Notes under the pieces: model-generated
What the model was told of the DNA's origin: nothing
The model's input: only the letters and a program-made list of their open reading frames with translations
Databases searched by the model: none
Assembly: GCA_964016885.1 (NCBI GenBank)
Contig: OZ024742.1
Location: forward strand, 211,234,001 to 211,298,000
DNA length: 64,000 bases
Direction of reading: 5' to 3'
Source: Eledone cirrhosa
Lineage: Eukaryota
Made by a program: the position numbers and the translations under genes
Shown here: positions 43,541 through 57,439 of the stretch, piece after piece
Layout: every line of letters starts with the position of its first letter
Position numbering within the stretch: the stretch's first letter is position 1

Positions 43541-44601
43541 TATATTGATAAAAGGAAAAGAAAATGCTGACAAATTGTTCCCAGTGAAAAATAGTTTAAT
43601 TAGGAATAAGTAAAAATGAGTAATAAGTATTGGTAAGCATTCAGTTTTAGTTTTAAGTTTTTACCGGTTGCGCATTTCTAATGCTTTTCAAAAATAATTT
43701 TGAGATAGAGCACCCGTGATGTTTGCTCTAATCTGATTAGTTTTGGAAATTCTACCTGTTTAATGCGAAAAAAGTGGCTCCAGATGTATTAAAATAAGTT
43801 TCGCGCCAATTCGTGTTGCAAAAATTCTTGTGGTCAAAACAATTTTGATTGGTCGGTAGAGGTCATGTGAATGTTAAAAATTGATATTGCGCCAAATGTA
43901 GGTTTGTCTCGGCTGATTGAGAAGTCACTGAAAAATAAGTCTTTTAAGACAAATATGTGTGTGTGTGTGTGTGTGTGTGTAGTAGTAGTAAAGAGGTTCA
44001 TTGTTGTGATAATGGTCAGTAGGGATGTGTGTGTGAATTGCAGTCATGTTGACAGGTCAACAGTTCAGGCGCCTATTAAGACAAGTGTGTGTGCGTGTGT
44101 GTAGCAGAGTAATTCGTGGTAGAGGGATCGGTCAGTATGAATGTGTCTGTACGTGTGTGGGGGATATTTTAACATGTTAAAAGATATTTTTCAGCTCTTG
44201 TCTTATACGGTGAAGTGTGTGTGTGTGTATGTCTCTTTGTATGTTAGTGTACGCGTGTGTATGTATATATGTGTGTGTGTGGGTGGACCAGTATTTTTGT
44301 GATACTGGTAAAAATGGTGTACATTATTCGTGTGTACGATATTTTCAGTAAAAACGATTCTCTCAAGAGAACATCAAAAACCTTAATAATAAAAGGTGTG
44401 AAATGATATATAGTATTGTCATAACACCAAGGTGTGTGTGAGTGTCCAGATTGTACGTACTGCAAGGGGAATCCATACAATACTATATATCATTTCACAC
44501 CTTTTATTATTAAGGTTTTTGATGTTCTATTGAGAGAATCGTTTTTACTGAAAATATCGAATAATGTACACCATTTTTACCAGTATCACAAAAATACTGG
44601 T

Positions 44602-44643
<42 letters not shown>

Positions 44644-45339
44644 TAACATACAAAGAGACATATACACACACACACACTTCTCCGTATAAGACAAGAGCTG
44701 AAAAATATCTTTTAACATGTTAAAATATCCCCCACACACGTACAGACACATTCATACTGACCGATCCCTCTACCACGAATTACTCTGCTACACACACACA
44801 CACACACACTTGTCTTAATAGGCACCTGGACTGTTGACCTGTCAACATGACTGCAATTCACACACACATCCCTACTGACCATTATCACAACAATGAACCT
44901 CTTTACTACTACTACACACACACACACACACATATTTGTCTTAAAAGATTTATTTTTCAGTGACTTCTCAATCAGCCGAGACAAACCTACATTTGGCGCA
45001 ATATCAATTTTTAACATTCACATGACCTCTACCGACCAATCAAAATTGTTTTGACCACAAGAATTTTTGCAACACGAATTGGCGCGAAACTTATTTTAAT
45101 ACATCTGGAGCCACTTTTTTCACATAAAACAGGTAGAATTTCCAAAACTAATCAGATTAGAGCAAACATCACGGGCGCTCTATCTCAAAATTATTTTTGA
45201 AAAGCATTAGAAATGCGCAACCGGTAAAACTTAAAACCAAAACTGAATACTAACCAATACTTATTACTCATTTTTACTTATTCCTAATTAAACTATTTTT
45301 CACTGGGAACAATTTGTCAGCATTTTCTTTTCCTTTTAC

Positions 45340-46612: not shown

Positions 46613-46735
46613 TGTAGTGACCTACATTCTCATGGCTTTTAAATACATTTTCCTACGCTGATAGCGATTGGTTGAACTGAGCCAAACAACGTATGGAGAA
46701 TGTATTCAAGAGCCATCAGAATGTAGGTCACTACA
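46613..46735. mobile_element. 123-bp foldback mini-element, TG...CA ends, 4-bp TSD
   Basis: TIR tgtagtgacctacattct / agaatgtaggtcactaca; TSD ggag; removing it restores the RTE sequence LERSNYRGI. Confidence 0.85.
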
Positions 46736-47343
46736 GGAGCAATTATAGAGGCATAAAGCAGATGGATCAGGTTATGAAAGTAGCGGAGAGAATATTAGCG
46801 CAACTGATTAGAGAAAGAGTCAAATTAGGTGAGATACAGTTTGGTTTTGTGACTAGGAAAAGTACAACAGATGCCCTCTTCTTAGTGAGACAACTACAAG
46901 AGAGGATCTTAGAGAAGAATAAGCCACTATACTTAGCTTTTGTTGACCTAGAGAACGCCTTTGATAGCCTACTCCGATCTGTCATCTGGTGGTCCGTAAG
47001 TGTTGTGTACGGATTCCCAAGTAAGAACAAGTGTAAAGACGGTAGGAAGTTGTATTAAACAACGTAAGTATAACTGTACACAGGATGGCACGGAGCCGCA
47101 AGCAAAGCACGATGTATAGAGTATAGTGTCACATCCACATGCCCGTGCGCACACGTTGAGTCCAAGGTCTTATTGGACGGGCGAGCCAATCAATATGAAG
47201 ACTGTGTGTGATTGGCCGATGAGTGGCCAATAAGTGGCTGGAACGTGTTACGTGTAATGAAAGAAAGGGAATAAATACGGATAGGCGAGAATATGAGAGA
47301 AGCATTAATGTATACACAACATTTTCTCCCCTCTTTTTAAAGC

Positions 47344-50300
47344 TGTAGTGACCTACATTCCGCGGGCTCACATACATTCTATGTGCGTGATTTGGCTCAG
47401 CCAATCAGCGCCAGTAGAAGAGAATGTATCCCTACGCGCCCTGAGGGAGAAATTCCCTGCGAGGATTTGAAGGATCTATAGCGGGGATACTGGGTTGCAT
47501 GAACGTAACAAGGAATTCATTGTTTGTTTGTATAATATTTAATTAACAATGGTAGATAGTATAGTTGACATGTCAAAGATGAGGATGATAGAATGAAGCA
47601 AAGTTAGTAGTTACCGTTTTGATTGCCAGGCAAACGCGGCTGGCAGAGGACGCCTGGCTAAGGCCAGGCGCCTGTTGGCCAAATGAATGGCAGAGCCAAA
47701 TGAGAGGCTCTTGACCTGGTGCCGAAAAGGCAATGAGAGAATGAGAGCTTAAAGTTGTTAGTTTTATAGGGCTCTGACCGGAAGTTACAGAAAGGGCCCC
47801 ACTTCCCGTCCAGACGTTAATCCAAACAAGGGAGACAACCGCTACATAACCTCCCGCCAGAATTTTAGTGTATAAAAATCGAAATGAAAATATGTAGCAA
47901 GTTGGCGAGAATGTTGTAACAGGCATGAAAATTACGACAAAAGAATGTTTGCAAAAATCAATGATAGATATCAAGGTAGCCAACCGCTCTTGGCCAGAGA
48001 ACGACTGGACATCCATCCATCCATCACCCAAAGATACAATGTAATAAAGTAAGAGAAGACCTCAAAGTTCAAATGTACAAAATATAGTTCACAGGTGTGC
48101 AATCACATGACAGCAGGAAAGAAAGTGTGTTCCAGAGAATGAATGCAGGTGGTTTCTGTTCTGTGGTATATCGTGAAATTTCCAACCTCCGAATGGATTT
48201 TCTCACAGGGAGAGTGCTGCAAAAATAAATTCTCTGGCTTTGGTTGTTGGTGAAGCTGTGTTGATGTATTGCTGCTGTTGTCTCGCTGAGTGAGCGTATT
48301 CGGTGTTTAAATTCACAGTAAAAAAAAAAAAATTTTTTTCTTTTTCTTTAGAAAAAATGAGTTGCGCCATGTGCTAGAAATAGCAGCCGAATTTGATGGT
48401 CGATGTTGAGAATGCGTTGACCTGGAAGGGTCAAGAGGCCAGCGACCAGAGAAATAAGCATTCTTAATAAATGCGCGGTTATCAACGGTAAATTTACATT
48501 GTAAATTTATAAACCGGCAAATAGAAGAATATAGCTTAAGGCTGAAGAATCCTTGGCGAGAAATGTTATCTCTGGCGTGCGGCTATGTCTGTGAGTAGAG
48601 ACATCTCTGTGAATCGAGAATTTGTGCTGCCTACACGTGCCAATACAAGGTTGAAAAAAATAATATTTCTAACGCGCGAGAAAATGATAGTGCAATTTTG
48701 AAAGTGACAATGATGAAAAAGAAAGGCTTCACTCAGCATAATTATTGGTGTGAACTTTGGGAAAAAAAAAACTTGAACGATGAAGAAAACGATAAACAAA
48801 AAGGCAATGGTTCATCGAAAATAAATGTTCCTGTTGAAATGTTTTTTTAAAGAATATCGAATTTCTTTTTTTCCCTTTTTTTTTGTTTTGAAAGAGTTCG
48901 CTGTAAGACACGAGAAACATATATATATATCGTGAAATGTTTTTTTTTTTTTTGTTTTGAAAGGGTTCGTTGTAAGAAACGAGAAACATATATATATATT
49001 GGTGAAATGCGACAGTTAGTTGATGCGTGAGAGAAAAAGTCTGTCTGTGCGAATTCCACATGTGCGTGTGTGCGTGTCCTAGAGTATTTTCATAGTTTGT
49101 CGATAAATTTGCTGTGTATTCGTAATGTTACTCACACAAAACCAGATGTGGTATTTTTTTTTTTTTGGGGGGGGGGGGGTGACCACTTATAGCGATGAAC
49201 GGCTGCGTGTTCGTATCACGTCAGGGTTACCAATATAGCGGGGATACTGGGTTGCATGAATGTAACAAGGAATACATTGTTTGTTTGTATAATATTTAAT
49301 TAACAATGGTAGATAGTATAGTTGACATGTCAAAGATGAGGATGATAGAATGAAGCAAAGTTAGTAGTTACCGTTTTGATTGCCAGGCAAACGCGGCTGG
49401 CAGAGGACGCCTGGCTAAGGCCAGGCGCCTGTTGGCCAAATGAATGGCAGAGCCAAATGAGAGGCTCTTGACCTGGTGCCGAAAAGACAATGAGAGAATG
49501 AGAGCTTAAAGTTGTTAGTTTTATAGGGCTCTGACCGGAAGTTACAGAAAGGGCCCCACTTCCCGTCCAGACGTTAATCCAAACAAGGGAGACAACCGCT
49601 ACAGATCTCTCTCTCGCATCCTGAACTTCGAAGTTTACAATATGTAAAGGTGAGATTTGCACTTTGGCCCGCCGGCCTGCCTCGAGCCTGGTACAATGAA
49701 ACATTACTTTGTGCTACAACAAAATAAACATACATTTCATCTCACGAACATTCTTCTTGTTGGCGTTATTATCATGTTACTCGTTATCGATATGACTAAC
49801 ATATACTTCTACCAAACTGATTACTCGTGGCGCTTCTAACTATAACACAACAACCAGCTAAATTGGTGACCTGACGTGAGGAATATTTTAAATACAAAAT
49901 ATTCCTTTTAAAATTAAAAAAATTAGCAGTGTTTCAAAAACTTTTCGCCACGAGGAAATTTCAAAATGGTTACCACCAAGTACTTCTCTACTACCAGCCA
50001 TCAGCAGCAACTGACGCAGCATAGTGACACCTTTGTATTTAAACCGCCGCCAATACTGCCACAGCTTCGACACGGCTACAATAACAACTTCGGCACCATC
50101 AACAGCAGCGCCTACGACAACATTGTTGAAAGAAAAAAAATTAGCTGTATTTTCAAAATTATAGCCCGGAGACATTTTTTTTTTCTTTCAATACGGCTTT
50201 CTGCAATACAAACAAGCAAAACACCAAACTCACGTGGTGACTCTCAGCTTTTCGGCGTGCGACTTCGATTCTACAGAAGATTTACTGTGACTTTGCTTTG

Positions 50301-51511
50301 ATAACAACAACTCTGCTAGCTTCCTAGTAAGAGCGATCACAAAGACATTTTAAGGAAAAGAAAAAGCGAACTTTTTGTTAAAAAAACAATTCTTTCTTTC
50401 TTTCTTTCTCTTTTTACAGGCAATGTTCGGACATTTATTCTTTTAAAACTGTATTATACGAAAATTCATTTTCTTTATCATTGTATATATAACTGCATCA
50501 TTTTTTTTTTTACCATTGTATATATGACTGCACCCACACATTCTTTGCTGTAATACATGCCAGCATATGCACACATATTTCTTTGACACACACCAACATG
50601 TTGTTGTCGTTAGCATAACAACCTCCATCTTGTTACTTTACCCAACTCACTGGGAAAACAACAAATGGAACTGGACCTGTCAGCATTTCCACCATTTCCC
50701 CTACAGATTCAACTTACTTTTTTCTCTTCAAAGCAACCAGCCATTTTTTCCTGGCTGCCTAGCACTTTCGGCAATTCATCTGGGAGGCCGACATTTTCTC
50801 GCCTACCCACCATCTTCTTGCCAGCTTTGCTACACTTACCATAACAGCTATACAGCTCTGGTAAAGCATGAACAGCACCATCATTGACAACAGCTACTGG
50901 TAAACTACCATAACAGCTTCATCCACAGCTACTGGTACAACACTTACCATTAACATTTAATGCAAGAACAGCAACTTCGCCCATGTCAGACTTTATCCGT
51001 TTTCCTATGATCACGTATAAATATCAAAACAGCTAGTCATTTGCCACAGCAGCTCAACACGGCCCTTAGCGCCTCATTTTTCTTCTTGCGTGCATTCTTC
51101 TGTTCAATTATTTTTTCATTGATGTGCTCATTCAGCATTTTTCCTGCTGAATCAATAATCTGTATCGTCTTGCGACTAGGAAGGTGGTATTGTAGTGACA
51201 TACATTCCGCGGGCTCACATACATTCTCTGTGCGTGATTTGGCTCAACCAATCAGCGCCAGTAGAAGAGAATGTATCCCTACACGCCCTGAGAGAGAAAT
51301 TCCCTGCGAAGATTTGAATCTGTCTCTCGCATCCTGAACTTCGAAGGAACGACACGTACAATATGTAACGGTGAGATTTTCACTTTGGCCTGCCGGCCTG
51401 CCTCGAGCCTGGTACAATGGCACATTCCTTTTGTAATCCTTTTATGTTTAACTACAATCATACAAATTAACAAACATTACTTTCTCACTACATCTAAATA
51501 ACTCTGCTAAA
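47344..51511 (+). mobile_element. Non-autonomous LTR element B nested just inside the 3' LTR of the maelstrom element
   Basis: LTR copies start at 47344 (split by C, ends about 49862) and 51191; PBS tggtgacctgacgtga at about 49864; purine tract aggaaggtgg before 51191; non-coding interior; the 3' end is uncertain and I found no TSD. Confidence 0.75.
47477..49603 (-). mobile_element. Non-autonomous LTR element C inserted in the LTR of B
   Basis: Near-identical 370-bp LTRs at 47477-47846 and 49234-49603; TSD gatc; tRNA-Trp PBS at 49201-49232; PPT-like ggcgggagg next to 47847. Confidence 0.9.
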
Positions 51512-51793
51512 CGGTGATTAATAAAACTGCTACAATCCAACATGTTTGTCACACACCACATCAATTCTTGTTATGACCCGGCTAAAAAAAAAAAAAAAAA
51601 ATAATAATAATAATAATAATAAGATCTGGTGTTGTGTGTATATGGAAAAAAAATAATTAATTAGCAGTGCCCCATTTTCGTTGGAATGTGTCGACCAACG
51701 TACTACTCTCTTTTACATGCACATTGATCGACTTTCAGAGATTTCGTCTTTTTGCTATAAGATGCTTGGTATCTAGACAATTTTGCTTTAGCC

Positions 51794-51950
51794 TCAATAT
51801 CCGACGACTGAGCTTAATTTAGTGCGCAAGGGTCGACCTAAGAACAGTTCAGCCGGTGCTACTTCGGTCGCACTGTGGAGCGTCGATCGTAGTGTCTGCA
51901 GCGCCTTCGATACTGCGTCATCCCATGTCAGACCGTGAAGTTGTAGTGTT
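51794..51950 (-). pseudogene. Gypsy integrase C-terminal remnant, in frame with the maelstrom tail
   Basis: TWDDAVSKALQTLRSTLHSATEVAPAELFLGRPLRTKL matches the Gypsy integrase motif YRxTPHxxTGxSPAELLxGRxxRTxL. Confidence 0.8.
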
Positions 51951-53558
51951 TGAAATGTTGTGTCTGGTGGATTTTGGAAAACGGTTTCAAAGTGGAATGG
52001 ATTCTGCAGAACTTCGTTTTCTTCACATATACGATTTATTTCACTATCACACTCGCTTAAACTATTACATACATTAGCGTCATGACTACAACAATCAGAT
52101 TCGTTTTCAGATTTCGTTCCCAATGGAACGTCTACATTACTATCCAAATAACTGTGTTTTGCCGACGCAAAAGCAACGTCAGCGCTGGTAAGTGGTTTGC
52201 GGGGAGCTTCCAATTCATCATTTGAAGAATGAAAATTCGGTTGAACGTTAGAAGAGTTTTGTGTCGTGTTTTCAGACCAACGTTTGTTTCTTTGGGCAGC
52301 TGAGCGAGAGTTATTTTTTCTATTGCCGAAATGGGGAGGGTTTAACGATACGCCTTTACTTTTACTATCTTTCACGGGGCGGTGCTGAGGTGTGAGTGTT
52401 AATTCATAACATTGACGAGAGAATCTGACATGGCGTAAGCGTATCTTCGAATAATAGCTAAGCTACAATGAATAAGACTAGCCTGTTTGTGCCCAGGACA
52501 ACGAGTATTGGGTTCATAATCAAATGCAGTGGTTGTCAGCATGTCAAGAATTTGATATTTCGCTACTGGAAAGCCGCTATGTTTAAACAAATCCATGACG
52601 AGCTTTCTCAAGTGCATAAAGTTGAATATATTCCGATCTAGTATTTTCACTTCGTACTCAAAACCAATTCAAGCAGCTTTCATCCTCTTTGAAATCTTTC
52701 GACAAACAATAAAATTGTTTATTACGAGAAAATTTAAGCAAATTTTTCCACAGTTGAGTATAATCAGATGTGGCCATTTCAAAATTTTCTATGGGAATTT
52801 GGTGAGTGTTGTCACTGTGGAATTGCGCCTCATATCTGAAACCAACGGGAATTGGACCCGCGTTAATAAATTGGTGCATCTCTATACTAACACCTTCCTT
52901 CATATTGTATTCCAACATAGAAATTTCAACTGGTAAGCATTCGTCGTCTGAAGTCTTACAAAGTATCTGGAAATTCAGTAAGTAAAACTTTTCATATAAT
53001 ATATCAGTATTATGCGGCCATTTTGAGATAATATCTCGGTCTTGTTCAGCGTATTGTTTAGCAATTTCGTCGAGGGGTTCACAATGGTGAGAAATCAACT
53101 GCCCTGTACAATCCATACGCGAATCCTTTTTCTTATTGTTGGTGTTGTTATTCTTTTTACGTGAATTTTCTTTAACTTCACGAGACATTTTTTCATAAGG
53201 GTACTTTTCGTTTGCCGTCAGCAGCTTCCATTTGGAGCCAGCTAAAGTCACAACATCTGCTAAACCATGAGGGAAATTATGGCCATTAAGTTTCATCTCT
53301 TCCATTAAATCTTTCATATAATAATTGTTTCTACTTTTGGCACAAGGCCAGCAATTATCCCAGTGTATTACTGGTACTTTATTTTATCGACCCCGTAAGG
53401 ATGAAAGGCAAAGTTAACCTCGGCAGGATTTGAACTCAGATCATAAAGGGCCGTAACTCTTTGCTCCAAAGCATGGCATCCGACCCTCTACCGATACTGC
53501 CAATCCACCGCCCTTTCATATAATAATAAAAAGCTTTATGTATTTTATTTGGAGGCAT
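51950..53558 (-). pseudogene. mael: Intronless maelstrom-like CDS (HMG box + MAEL domain), disrupted by a SINE and two 1-bp indels
   Basis: MPPNKIHKAFYYYMKD...AGSKWKLLTANEKYPYEKM (HMG box); LPVEISMLEYNMKEG...HQFINAGPIPVGFRYEAQFHSDNTHQIP, DYEPNTRCPGH...HCSLAIIRRYAY and YELTLTPQHRP (MAEL domain, E-H-H-C-H-C residues present). Confidence 0.88.
53326..53512 (-). mobile_element. tRNA-derived SINE inserted near codon 15 of the maelstrom copy
   Basis: 15-bp TSD ctttcatataataat at 53311-53325 and 53513-53527; same family as 12858-13045. Confidence 0.92.
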
Positions 53559-53587
53559 GTTTAACGGTGTAGAGTTACAAACGTTCT

Positions 53588-54730
53588 CTAGCTTAGGCGA
53601 GATTCTAAGTGGGCCATGGCGTTACCACCTAACAACGGTTTACATTGCCCTGGGTCATAAACTGCAATCTTACAAGCGGAATTTATTTCTACCTGAATGT
53701 TGGTGAAGAAAAATCCGCGAATGCCGACAAAGTCATCAGAATAGCTCAAGAACTTGTAGGCGGTATGAAGTAAAGGCGACTGTCTGAAGTGTGACTGATA
53801 AAAGGTTTTGGCGACTATGGTAATTGGAGATGCTGAATCGAGCTCCACCAATAATATGTCATTTTTACCATCAGCCGACAGACTAACATGCCAACAATCA
53901 GCTTAAGAAGCTTAGGCTCATGATCATTCTCGGCAGTAAGCTGACTGATGATTGAATATATTGTAACATCGTTTTCGGTTTCTATTGCTTCTTCAATACG
54001 GTGAACTGTTTTGCCACGGCAGCACTTGGCAAAATGACCCCTCTTCCCACAGTTCCGACAAATTGAATTTTTGGCGGAGCATTGGGGAAAAGTTGCCTTA
54101 TGACCAGGATTCCCACACCGGAAACATTTGCTGTTGGATTGCATTGAAATTTTACTTTGCTCTAGAGCAACCTTATCAATGTTATGCTGTTCTTCTTGTT
54201 TGAAAGCCTTCACTTGAGACTTAATGCTTTCTTTGCAACGAACTATATTACAGGCTTTGTCGAAAGACAAGGTACGCGAATCCTTGTTTAAAAGCGCCTC
54301 TCGTGTACTATCGCTTTCATTGCTGGAGATTAGTTGCTGTATTAACATAGCGTCTTTAATTTTGAACTTAGACTTTCGTATTCACATTCGGTAACTTTTT
54401 TGCGCAGTTTTAAGATAAAACTATCAGCCGACTCACCGCGGTCCTGCGGAAGGCGACTGAATTGATGCCTCGCGAAGAAAACGTTTTGTGTTGTCCTCCC
54501 ACAGGCGATCGAGTTCGTAAATAGCTGCGTCCACATTCTTGAAATCGTGGCGACCGGCTTCACCAAGATAATGGCGCATTAAGGCATTTGGAGTCGTCTG
54601 TCAGCGCAATGGATGGGTTCAACACCGGAAGCGGGCTGAAGTAGTTGAACAATTCCTTTTTCCAAGATGTCCATTCCTGCGTGGTTGGTCGGGCGAATTC
54701 ACCAACCCAGAAGTAATCCAAGTGGGGTTG
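53588..54730 (-). pseudogene. gag and protease of the Mag-like element, frameshifted
   Basis: RHQFSRLPQDRGESADSFILKLRKKVTECEY; CFRCGNPGH...C and CRNCGKRGHFAKCC; protease VELDSASPITIV...PLLGGN. Confidence 0.85.
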
Positions 54731-57439
54731 ATTCATAGGGATTTTTCAGAAAATGATCCAATTTGTGAAAAAAATAGCAGGTAACCTCGGCGACGCCAAT
54801 TATTGTGTACGGATTCCCAAGTAAAAACAAGTGAGGAAGTTGTATTAAACAACGTAAGTATAACTGTACGCAGGATGGCACGGAGCCGTAAGCAAAGCAC
54901 GATGTACAGAATATAGTGTCACATTCACATGCCCACACGTTGAGTTCAAGGTCTTATTGGACGAATGAGCCAATCAATATGAAGACTGTGTGTGATTGGC
55001 CGATGAGTGGCCAATAAGTGGCTGGAACGTGTTACGCGTAATGAAAGAAAGGGAATACATACGAATAGGCAAGAAGCATTAATGTAGACACAACACTAAG
55101 GAAACTAGGTGTAGAGGAATGGCTTGTGAGGATAGTGCAAGCTATGTACAGAGGTGCTGTCAGTAAAGTGAGAGTAGGAATGGAGTTTAGTGAGGAATTC
55201 CAGATACAAGTAGGAGTACATCAGGGTTCGGTCCTCAGCCCGCTCTTGTTCATTATAGTCCTCCAAGCCATAGCAGAGGAGTTTAAGATGGGCTGTCCAT
55301 GGGAACTTCTCTATGCTGATGATCTGGTTCTTATAGCAGAATGAGTAGAGGAGCTAGAGAATAAATTCTGGCTATGGAAACAGCAGTTGGAATCAAGAGG
55401 ACTGAGAGTGAACATAGCTCAGACAAAAGTGTTGATAAGTAGAAGAGAGGACAAAACTCTGATTCCATCAGGGAAATGGCCATGTTTGATATGTAGAAAA
55501 AGAACTGGCATAAATTCTATAAAATGTACACAATGCAGATCTTGGGTACACAATAGATGTAGTGGGATAGCAGGCAAACTACGTATGCAGCAGATGTACA
55601 GGGAAATTTGACAGTAGTAATCGCATTAATAGACATTTTTTCAAATGCAGGTGGGTTCTATAGAAGTGGTTGATAGCTTCCGGTACCTAGGTGATCAGAT
55701 TAGCTTGGGAGAGTGTGTTCCGAGGCGATAGTATCTAGAATAATGACGGGTTGGAAGAAGTTTAGGGAGCTGCTTCCTGTTGACAAAGAAGGGTTTCTCC
55801 CTGCGTACGAAAGGTTGGTTATATGATACCTGTGTGAGATGCACGATGCTGCATGGTAGTGAGACATGGGCAGCAACTAGAGGATATGCAACAGCTGGAA
55901 AGAAATGAAGCAAGCATGCTCCGTTGGATGTGCAATGTCAATGTGCGTGAACGACCAAGCATAGATAAGTTGAGAGAGAAACTGTGTATAAGAGGCATAA
56001 GTTGTAGTGTGCAGGAGAGAAGACTGAGATGGTATGGACATGTAATGCGCATGGAAGATGACCGCTGGGTAAAGAAGTGCCAAGAAATCCCAGTAGAAGG
56101 AAGACCACGACAAACATGGGCGGAGGTGGTGAGAGACCTCAGATCGCTGAAGCTCACGGAGGAGATAACGAAGGACCGTGACAAGTGGAGAGATGCTGTG
56201 CTGAATAGGACCCGTCCAACTCTTGCAAGCAGGGAAAAGCGGACGTAAAATGATGATACATCTATAGAACAAATGCCTTGTAGTTAAGTAATGCACTCAG
56301 AAAACAAAGCATCTAGTTGACACGACCGTCGGATTCCAAACTCGTAAAAAATACATTTTTAAAAACAAAACCAATCATGAATTAAATGTCTATATTAGAA
56401 CTAAGACATCTCCCATAATCCCTACCTCAGACATCATCCATATATCCCAACCTCTAACCTGCTCTAAATATGAATATGGGAGATGGACATTTTCAAGCTG
56501 CAGCGTCAAATTACGTAGTTTCTGTGTAAGAATAGACATTGAATAATATCCTTTATTACCTGCAGTGACTACAACCCCATTACATAATAGGCCTTGCTCC
56601 ACCTTCACCCATATACCCTTGACATTAAACCCTCAAGATGATGTTGTCACTCATCAGGAGGCCCAGGTTTCAAATAGACATAATATACATACTCAAATGC
56701 AAAACATAATTAAGATTAAACGAATATATAGTAATCACTGCCAACTAATTAGAATGTGCTTTGCCGGTGAGACCTAAGATCGAAACATGTCCATTGCTTA
56801 AACAATTGGCTTTAAAAACTAGATCTACTCCTACCTCTATGGCAATTTAAAAAAAAAAATCCGATTCTCTAACTTAATTGAATGTATCTTTCTGGTTTGA
56901 GTTTTAGATCTTAAAACACACACAAAAGGAATTTTGTCCAGTAATTCCAGTTAATGGAATGTTTTAACTCACTATATTACATATGTAAGATTCTAATTTA
57001 TATTAACTATGTTTCATGGTGCACACTTAGTTTATTATCAATTTTTCAAGGGAACATATATGCATGCAAAACAGAGAATTAACGAAGTCATTAAAATGTC
57101 AGACAGAATGCTTTGCTGTATTCATTCAAGTGCAGAGCCGGAACGACTACAGCAAAGCCTTCTGGTGTGAACTTTACTTTTCAACCATTAGAGGTCAATA
57201 ATAAAAATATCAGACCATTACTGGGTTTCAATTCCTCTTCTATATCTCATCCTGGATGAAATCTACTATTTTCAAACCTGAAGAGGGATGGGTTCTGTGA
57301 GTTTTAAAATACCCAAGTATGTCACAACAGCACTCCTACAATTCCATCAGGAGTTACGGGTCCATACATATATGCATACACACAGATTATTGAAAATTAT
57401 TAATGTTGTAGAATACTCATTAAAAGAACTGACATCTAT

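Follow-up and report, generated by a model that had tools for sequence, protein, structure and literature searches.

A decayed, low-copy capture of the piRNA-pathway gene maelstrom by a Ty3/Gypsy retrotransposon in the octopod Eledone cirrhosa

How does a gene that acts in the pathway of PIWI-interacting RNAs (piRNAs) come to lie inside a retrotransposon, and did it serve the element there? The question is raised by a 64,000-nt stretch of the Eledone cirrhosa genome (the window; G000:C3:211234001-211298000 in an assembly of 3.0 Gb; unprefixed coordinates are positions of the window), which contains on its minus strand a Ty3/Gypsy long terminal repeat (LTR) retrotransposon with a copy of maelstrom (mael) in its interior. 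The structure of this element, its two junctions with the host gene, the codon phase of both and three mael-bearing loci can be read directly in the assembly. Together they show that a Gypsy element did capture a piRNA-pathway gene, with the codon phase kept at either end; this capture is low in copy number, old and dead.

The LTR pair, which an earlier note made from the window sequence had located correctly, differs by 16 substitutions in 295 aligned nt (5.4%; Kimura two-parameter distance 0.057), and together with a primer-binding site (PBS), a polypurine tract (PPT) and a target-site duplication (TSD) in the 4-6-bp range it identifies a Ty3/Gypsy LTR retrotransposon (Table 1). The PBS-like site starts with TGG in all seven copies compared; ARAGORN detected no tRNA gene in the window. 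The PPT, the 3' LTR and the integrase C-terminal remnant match the pol-bearing sister copies, in line with the parts that the note had named. The two TSD copies agree at four of five bases and lie, as claimed, within an RTE long interspersed nuclear element (LINE), both flanks of which are connected by an uninterrupted RTE copy with a 5-nt overlap (L007 3354-3358). The two zinc knuckles reported for gag were recovered as zf-CCHC in two stretches (E 1e-6, Pfam). The window protease has no Pfam or PDB match of its own, and the protease segment of a sister copy aligns with the Pfam aspartyl-protease domain of protein P0166. Neither reverse transcriptase (RT) nor RNase H was matched by Pfam in the eight element open reading frames (ORFs) scanned, and the sister copy L051 contains RVT_1, RT_RNaseH, Integrase_H2C2 and rve exactly at the position of mael in the window, which upholds the reported loss of both. 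L051 displays the order protease (PR), RT, RNase H (RH) and integrase (IN), with Ty3 Gag-Pol as its best PDB match (E 5e-53). The sister copies share with single-ORF Ty3/Gypsy elements the Gag-PR-RT-RH-IN order, TG...CA LTRs, the PBS, the PPT and a 5-bp TSD, whereas the window copy is without RT, RNase H and the integrase core of its own and is not autonomous.

The segment lying in place of this core is mael. Pfam recognized Maelstrom (E 4e-22) and HMG_box_2 (E 2e-8) in 52661-53383 and a second Maelstrom piece in a different frame at 52402-52668, so both an HMG box and a MAEL domain, as characteristic of Maelstrom, are present and the MAEL identity put forward earlier is confirmed. The captured sequence comprises 29 nt of host leader and about 468 of the 550 codons of host mael, roughly 1.4 kb, over which (29 nt upstream of the ATG to approximately codon 468) its identity with the host gene is 96.4-96.6%. 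It ends before the C-terminal RG motif that is common to four cephalopod-like proteins (P0001-P0004); RG motifs bind Tudor proteins. The RT-RNase H-integrase core that mael replaced is about 2.2 kb long (2218 nt in L051).

At the 5' junction, located in the PR-RT linker, the host leader and pol share 5 nt, a length which a random switch reaches in 0.6% of trials, and the codon phase is kept, with the leader open in the phase of the protease. A protease stop followed by 29 nt and the mael ATG had been described here, and the positions are right (TAG at 53590-53588, ATG at 53558). The stop is not the end of the protease, since it follows a frameshift near 53613 that is specific to the window; at a second locus on C15 the reading runs uninterrupted from the protease through nine leader codons into Mael. 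An arrangement of a terminated protease and a separate mael ORF is accordingly rejected. In the window a single frame crosses the 3' junction, from Mael to the integrase tail. The cargo is in sense orientation to the element, lacks both a poly(A) and a separate TSD, and replaces pol rather than interrupting it; its 5' end falls 12 nt after a likely splice acceptor of the host gene, and its 3' end within the coding sequence (CDS). Capture by template switching is supported by the replacement of pol, the sense orientation, the 5-nt microhomology, the absence of an own poly(A) or TSD, and the second locus with the shared junction. A 14-nt pattern across the junction has 19 genome matches, about the chance level in 3 Gb, two of them at known family loci. 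An exact contig across the 5' junction was also present in run X1, with 30 letters on one side, and may come from the assembly's own sample, so it does not count as independent.

Host mael is an intact 550-codon ORF in one exon (G000:C4:184539943-184541595; L002:1462-3114), the best named homolog of which is Mael of Argonauta hians with 71% identity. A likely splice acceptor was noticed about 40 nt upstream of its ATG. No LTR or gag of the Gypsy family occurs in the 40 kb read around this gene. A second, intron-containing host mael was absent among three PF13017 matches and six DNA matches, and no second gene was found among at least five oyster-Mael matches of a stricter search; Piwi-gene exons, though short, were picked up by a comparable search. 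In related organism B (run X5, presumed to be DNA) a contig spans the mael CDS in one piece, and run X4, of a kind not on record, yielded a host-type mael contig with no gag-protease coverage, which says nothing on expression. Piwi-domain genes occupy four loci in this genome, all multi-exon in contrast to the single-exon mael CDS, and mael has introns in other animals; octopod mael may be an old retrogene that displaced its parent. Because the parent CDS is itself one exon, the intronless state of the captured copy is uninformative, intron loss is unusable as proof of mRNA capture, and an RNA intermediate cannot be proven. Thus the earlier view of a spliced mael mRNA captured by template switching and mobilized in trans is supported in the switch and the movement in trans, while "spliced" cannot be shown.

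To what extent did the chimera spread? A search with the LTR found 19 loci with 32 matches between them; 18 loci were read (a 36-nt match on C14 was left out), and all family counts are lower bounds. Six of those read consist of a solo or partial LTR, and internal sequence is present at 12: eight retain RT, RNase H and/or integrase, one has integrase-core pieces, one has gag-protease only (L053, rearranged), and two contain mael. Speaking of an LTR family that carries mael was thus an overstatement. All eight gag-protease copies examined have stops or frameshifts, and family tip lengths are about 3-6%. Relatives of the family, 34-38% identical and found in flatworm records among others, have single-ORF Gag-Pol proteins of about 1300 aa, with Gag and RT in one protein in 7/7 found; the Gag may be Mag-like. 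Several copies have peculiarities of their own. The LTR pair of L057 differs by 1.6%, against 3.7-9.1% in five other pairs, reflecting either a younger insertion or LTR-to-LTR conversion. L053 (3502-5408) has an internal inversion and a deletion ending 8 nt before the position of the mael junction, and may once have held either pol or mael. The pol of L052 is interrupted by a 1.3-kb non-LTR-like fragment, presumably of the restriction-like endonuclease type.

The second mael-bearing copy (G000:C15:34762268-34764397, here C15) has LTR, gag, protease and a 5' junction identical to that of the window in an unrelated flank. Its mael ends at about codon 135, and no 3' part or 3' LTR was found within the 20 kb read downstream. 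C15 and L053 have a (GAT)n 5' flank in common; a segmental duplication was rejected, as no flank similarity extends outside the microsatellite. L066 was also rejected as the missing 3' half of C15, its flanks giving no TSD and its interior containing pol sequence. The third locus (G000:C2:99075104-99075491; L060:5100-5491) is an insert of about 390 nt, composed of the inverted last 28-30 bases of the LTR followed by mael codons ~248-367. It lies between 5-bp direct repeats (a TSD). Its start coincides exactly with the bases that come first in minus-strand strong-stop DNA, and its right end is a cryptic site resembling an LTR terminus. Judged from these features, the C2 insert would be an aberrant reverse-transcription product joined by integrase, which would place mael sequence inside the particles of the element. 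Three mael loci may reflect further mobilization as a non-autonomous element or, C15 being truncated and mosaic, DNA-level copying.

The captured gene has decayed. Window mael is damaged by a tRNA-type short interspersed nuclear element (SINE) at codon ~13, a 6-nt deletion, a nonsense codon near 52660 and two 1-nt frameshifts near 52604 and 52407; the intronless CDS described before keeps its mael identity and loses its integrity, and an intact cargo is rejected. C15 mael is also interrupted by a SINE, at the same site. Between the two SINEs 24 of 149 nt are different, compared with 23 of 393 nt in the mael sequence next to them (Fisher P 5e-4); their TSDs are of unequal length, and one internal variant distinguishes them. 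This SINE is very abundant, and the TSD starts with ATTA in 18 of 19 near-full copies, a target-site preference. These observations indicate that the insertions were probably independent, which implies that the mael frame was probably open when the element moved. A single ancestral insertion, with additional decay and a 13-nt deletion in C15, is disfavoured on the same grounds.

Comparison with host mael gave dN/dS values of 0.63 for the window (47 changes, P 0.12), 0.83 for C15 and 0.97 for C2, none of them significant, and 9 of 42 private changes are synonymous (P 0.45 against neutrality). The earlier note had set a single copy with dN/dS near 1 against its own proposal; more than one copy was found, and dN/dS is not different from 1. 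The window and C15 share two differences from the host in 393 nt, one of which is the ancestral residue according to the Argonauta protein, and the window and C2 share one in 342 nt; comparison of the host with both copies limits changes in host mael since the capture to at most 3 of 735 nt. So few shared differences imply almost no shared cargo lineage and a host gene that has hardly changed since. Cargo-host divergence of 3.4-4.1% is in line with the LTR age (2.7% per LTR) and the family tip lengths. The mael copies diverged in a star-like manner and decayed neutrally.

Table 1. Parts of the mael-bearing element and its later insertions, by window position
Feature	Positions	Strand	Remarks
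5-bp TSD, 5' copy	55096..55100	-	in RTE LINE RT frame; RVT_1 on both flanks
5' LTR	54801..55095	-	three small deletions relative to the 3' LTR
PBS-like site, begins TGG	54785..54798	-	by comparison with sister copies
gag	53890..54745	-	stops and frameshifts disrupt it; the two zinc knuckles lie at ~54130-54020
Aspartyl protease region and start of PR-RT linker	53588..53889	-	frameshift near 53613, in this copy only
Captured mael, 5' piece: 29 nt of host leader and first codons, ATG at 53558	53526..53587	-	
tRNA-type SINE (202 nt), 15-bp TSD	53324..53525	-	later insertion at start of HMG box
Main stretch of captured mael, with HMG box, complete MAEL domain and some of the C-terminal tail	51952..53323	-	
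Integrase C-terminal remnant, with internal deletion	51700..51951	-	codon phase shared with mael at the junction
Nested later insertions (4356 nt): repeat B with LTR element C inside	47344..51699	-	
PPT	47322..47343	-	same as in sister copies
3' LTR	47001..47321	-	
5-bp TSD, 3' copy	46996..47000	-	one mismatch to the 5' copy

The 4356 nt between the integrase remnant and the PPT have no counterpart in the sister copies and are later passengers. Repeat B consists of high-copy units of ~390 nt, which at other places commonly occur as pairs some 2 kb apart (1574 candidates). No TSD is seen at the left boundary of repeat B, where the 3' region of the Gypsy element has lost about 95 nt. LTR element C (47477-49603) has LTRs of ~370 nt with three differences (99.2% identical), a 4-bp TSD and no ORF above about 160 codons, and is probably non-autonomous and recently active. 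A small element with 41-nt terminal inverted repeats, the ends of which are like those of repeat B, lies within the RTE at 46613-46735, and a large imperfect inverted repeat occupies 44000-44894 (arms of 83-202 nt, 83-99% complementarity).

Which history accounts for the locus? We favour, with a rough probability of 0.72, an LTR-mediated retrocopy of host mael in a Ty3/Gypsy copy that was re-copied once or twice and then died. The host mael transcript would have been co-packaged while a small Ty3/Gypsy family with a single ORF went through a burst, and RT would have switched from the element RNA to mael near codon 468 and returned at the 5-nt microhomology in the PR-RT linker, exchanging RT, RNase H and the integrase core for mael. 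The original chimera would have formed one Gag-protease-Mael(1-468)-integrase-tail frame, reliant on helper copies for RT and integrase. At least one further copying (either a recombining retrotransposition or a conversion at the DNA level) and one aberrant integrant may have followed, with no lasting lineage, and all copies would since have decayed as pseudogenes. The retained frame may have helped the RNA to survive and be packaged, rather than serving a function of Mael.

An equivalent anatomy and re-mobilization are described for LTR-mediated retrocopies (Tan et al. 2016, PMC5131818). There a partial host transcript stands in sense orientation for some of the internal ORF between two retained LTRs, the junctions show microsimilarity, no poly(A) or own TSD is present, and one switch may account for more than one insertion site. 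By comparison, the Eledone case is the first seen in an octopod, has a piRNA-pathway cargo, and keeps both junctions in the phase of the polyprotein, whereas the intron-loss test is inapplicable to its intronless parent CDS.

Several observations weigh against this retrocopy history or its neutrality. The similarity at the 3' junction is about 2 nt, imperfect and not significant. Both junctions are in phase, for which our arithmetic gives a chance of ~1/9, and both domains, HMG and MAEL, are complete, which is unexpected for a purely random capture. The cargo belongs to a class of genes repeatedly captured by Drosophila telomeric transposable elements (TEs). Even a functional TE gene is expected to decay neutrally once inserted, and the dN/dS of the tips is compatible with a brief function. 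Furthermore, the gag-protease of C15 is sister to that of L053 and its LTR to that of L066 (99% bootstrap each), not to the window, so C15 is mosaic and its history is not that of a simple daughter copy. The mosaic may be a recombinant formed with a helper RNA, a daughter of an aged master copy or a DNA-level copy.

Did the element profit from its cargo? It is unlikely that Gypsy either put a tail-less Maelstrom in frame at the RT position as a brief protein counter-defence or supplied, through its copies, piRNAs against host mael. Nothing in the sequence analysis points to an anti-silencing role or a maintained function, and the decoy, dominant-negative and piRNA ideas of the earlier note found no positive support, given the few derived changes shared by the copies, their neutral decay and the nearly unchanged host gene.

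The better of the two ideas, though improbable by itself, is RNA-level anti-silencing of the TART-nxf2 type, in which the mael copies yield, or once yielded, piRNAs against host mael mRNA. Its precedents come from Drosophila telomeric elements, for which reports describe the capture of nxf2 (10.1101/2020.02.20.957324) and piRNA-pathway genes in 8 of 9 capture events, namely piwi, aub and, in the same count, nxf2 (PMC13534243). As there, a retrotransposon carries sequence of a silencing gene at an identity sufficient for piRNA targeting: the Eledone cargo is 96% identical over ~1.4 kb, above the ~80% where targeting is lost in Drosophila (PMC13534243). The Drosophila captures are fragments of 140-235 bp in active families of higher copy number, accompanied by piRNA data and host counter-evolution, whereas the Eledone capture, known from genomic sequence, extends over ~1.4 kb, includes entire domains and sits in an LTR element that is dead and of low copy number. 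Mael is confined to two of the 12 internal loci rather than being a family-wide cargo with raised copy number, and no accelerated or escape evolution was found in the captured region of the host gene, which changed at no more than the few positions given above. Among the 17 Piwi-domain matches in the four multi-exon loci, none is an intronless or TE-like copy, which gives no sign that such capture recurs here.

Somewhat less probable still is a counter-defence at the protein level, whereby a Gag-protease-Mael fusion, processed at the RT position, would have released a tail-less Mael that shields element RNA or acts as a dominant negative, aiding the burst of the family. Gag and protease are in one frame in 3 of the 8 copies examined, the relatives encode single-ORF Gag-Pol, the protease frame continues into Mael in C15, as does the Mael frame into the integrase tail in the window, and the apparently independent SINEs suggest a frame that was open at the move, all of which is consistent with such a fusion. 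MAEL could provide an RNA-binding module, as metazoan MAEL binds RNA and is nuclease-inactive in Bombyx (PMC4408791). Yet the phase match may be due to chance or to RNA stability, the copy number is low, and the near absence of a shared stem leaves no time under selection. Protein searches gave no Mael-TE fusion either, a weak negative: there was none among 1147 long candidates, no TE domain in 36 long or offset MAEL proteins scanned with Pfam (out of 150 listed representatives; 778 proteins passed E 0.001 overall), no match of family sequence in 159 proteins, and no MAEL domain in seven Gag-Pol relatives. An 857-aa protein, P0015, has two Maelstrom and two HMG stretches, from a tandem duplication or a gene-model artefact. 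A distant likeness is found in the bdelloid rotifer elements Juno and Vesta, LTR elements with a DEDD-fold gene whose resemblance to Maelstrom was noted by the authors (PMC5408684). Their DEDDy-exonuclease ORF3 is an extra ORF of complete elements that is family-wide, distant from host genes and equipped with its catalytic residues, in contrast to the recent true mael copy in place of pol in Eledone.

A DNA-level accident, in which double-strand-break repair in a resident Gypsy copy was templated on the single-exon host mael and the other loci arose by DNA copying, accords with the unprovable RNA intermediate and, for C15 alone, with the lack of a 3' LTR in 20 kb and the (GAT)n flank and gag-protease lineage in common with L053, but is made very doubtful by a capture that begins 12 nt past the likely splice acceptor and ends in the CDS in sense to the element, by the strong-stop start and 5-bp TSD at C2, which point to RT and integrase acting on mael, and by a cargo age in agreement with the insertion age.

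With this locus, gene capture mediated by LTRs is extended to cephalopods. The literature searched (outside subscription journals and supplements) gave no mael-carrying LTR element, a weak negative, and PMC13534243 makes no mention of mael. Mael joins a short list of piRNA-pathway genes taken by retrotransposons, which in the literature compared had previously been described for Drosophila telomeric non-LTR elements only. With its sharp junctions and the known differences between the copies and the host gene, the anti-silencing idea is directly testable with gonad small-RNA data, and, if true, this unlikely reading would mean that a transposon, here an LTR element in an animal other than an insect, made use of a stolen piRNA-pathway protein. 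As it stands, the locus is a failed, short-lived capture, a snapshot of transposons sampling host defence genes and not a new system.

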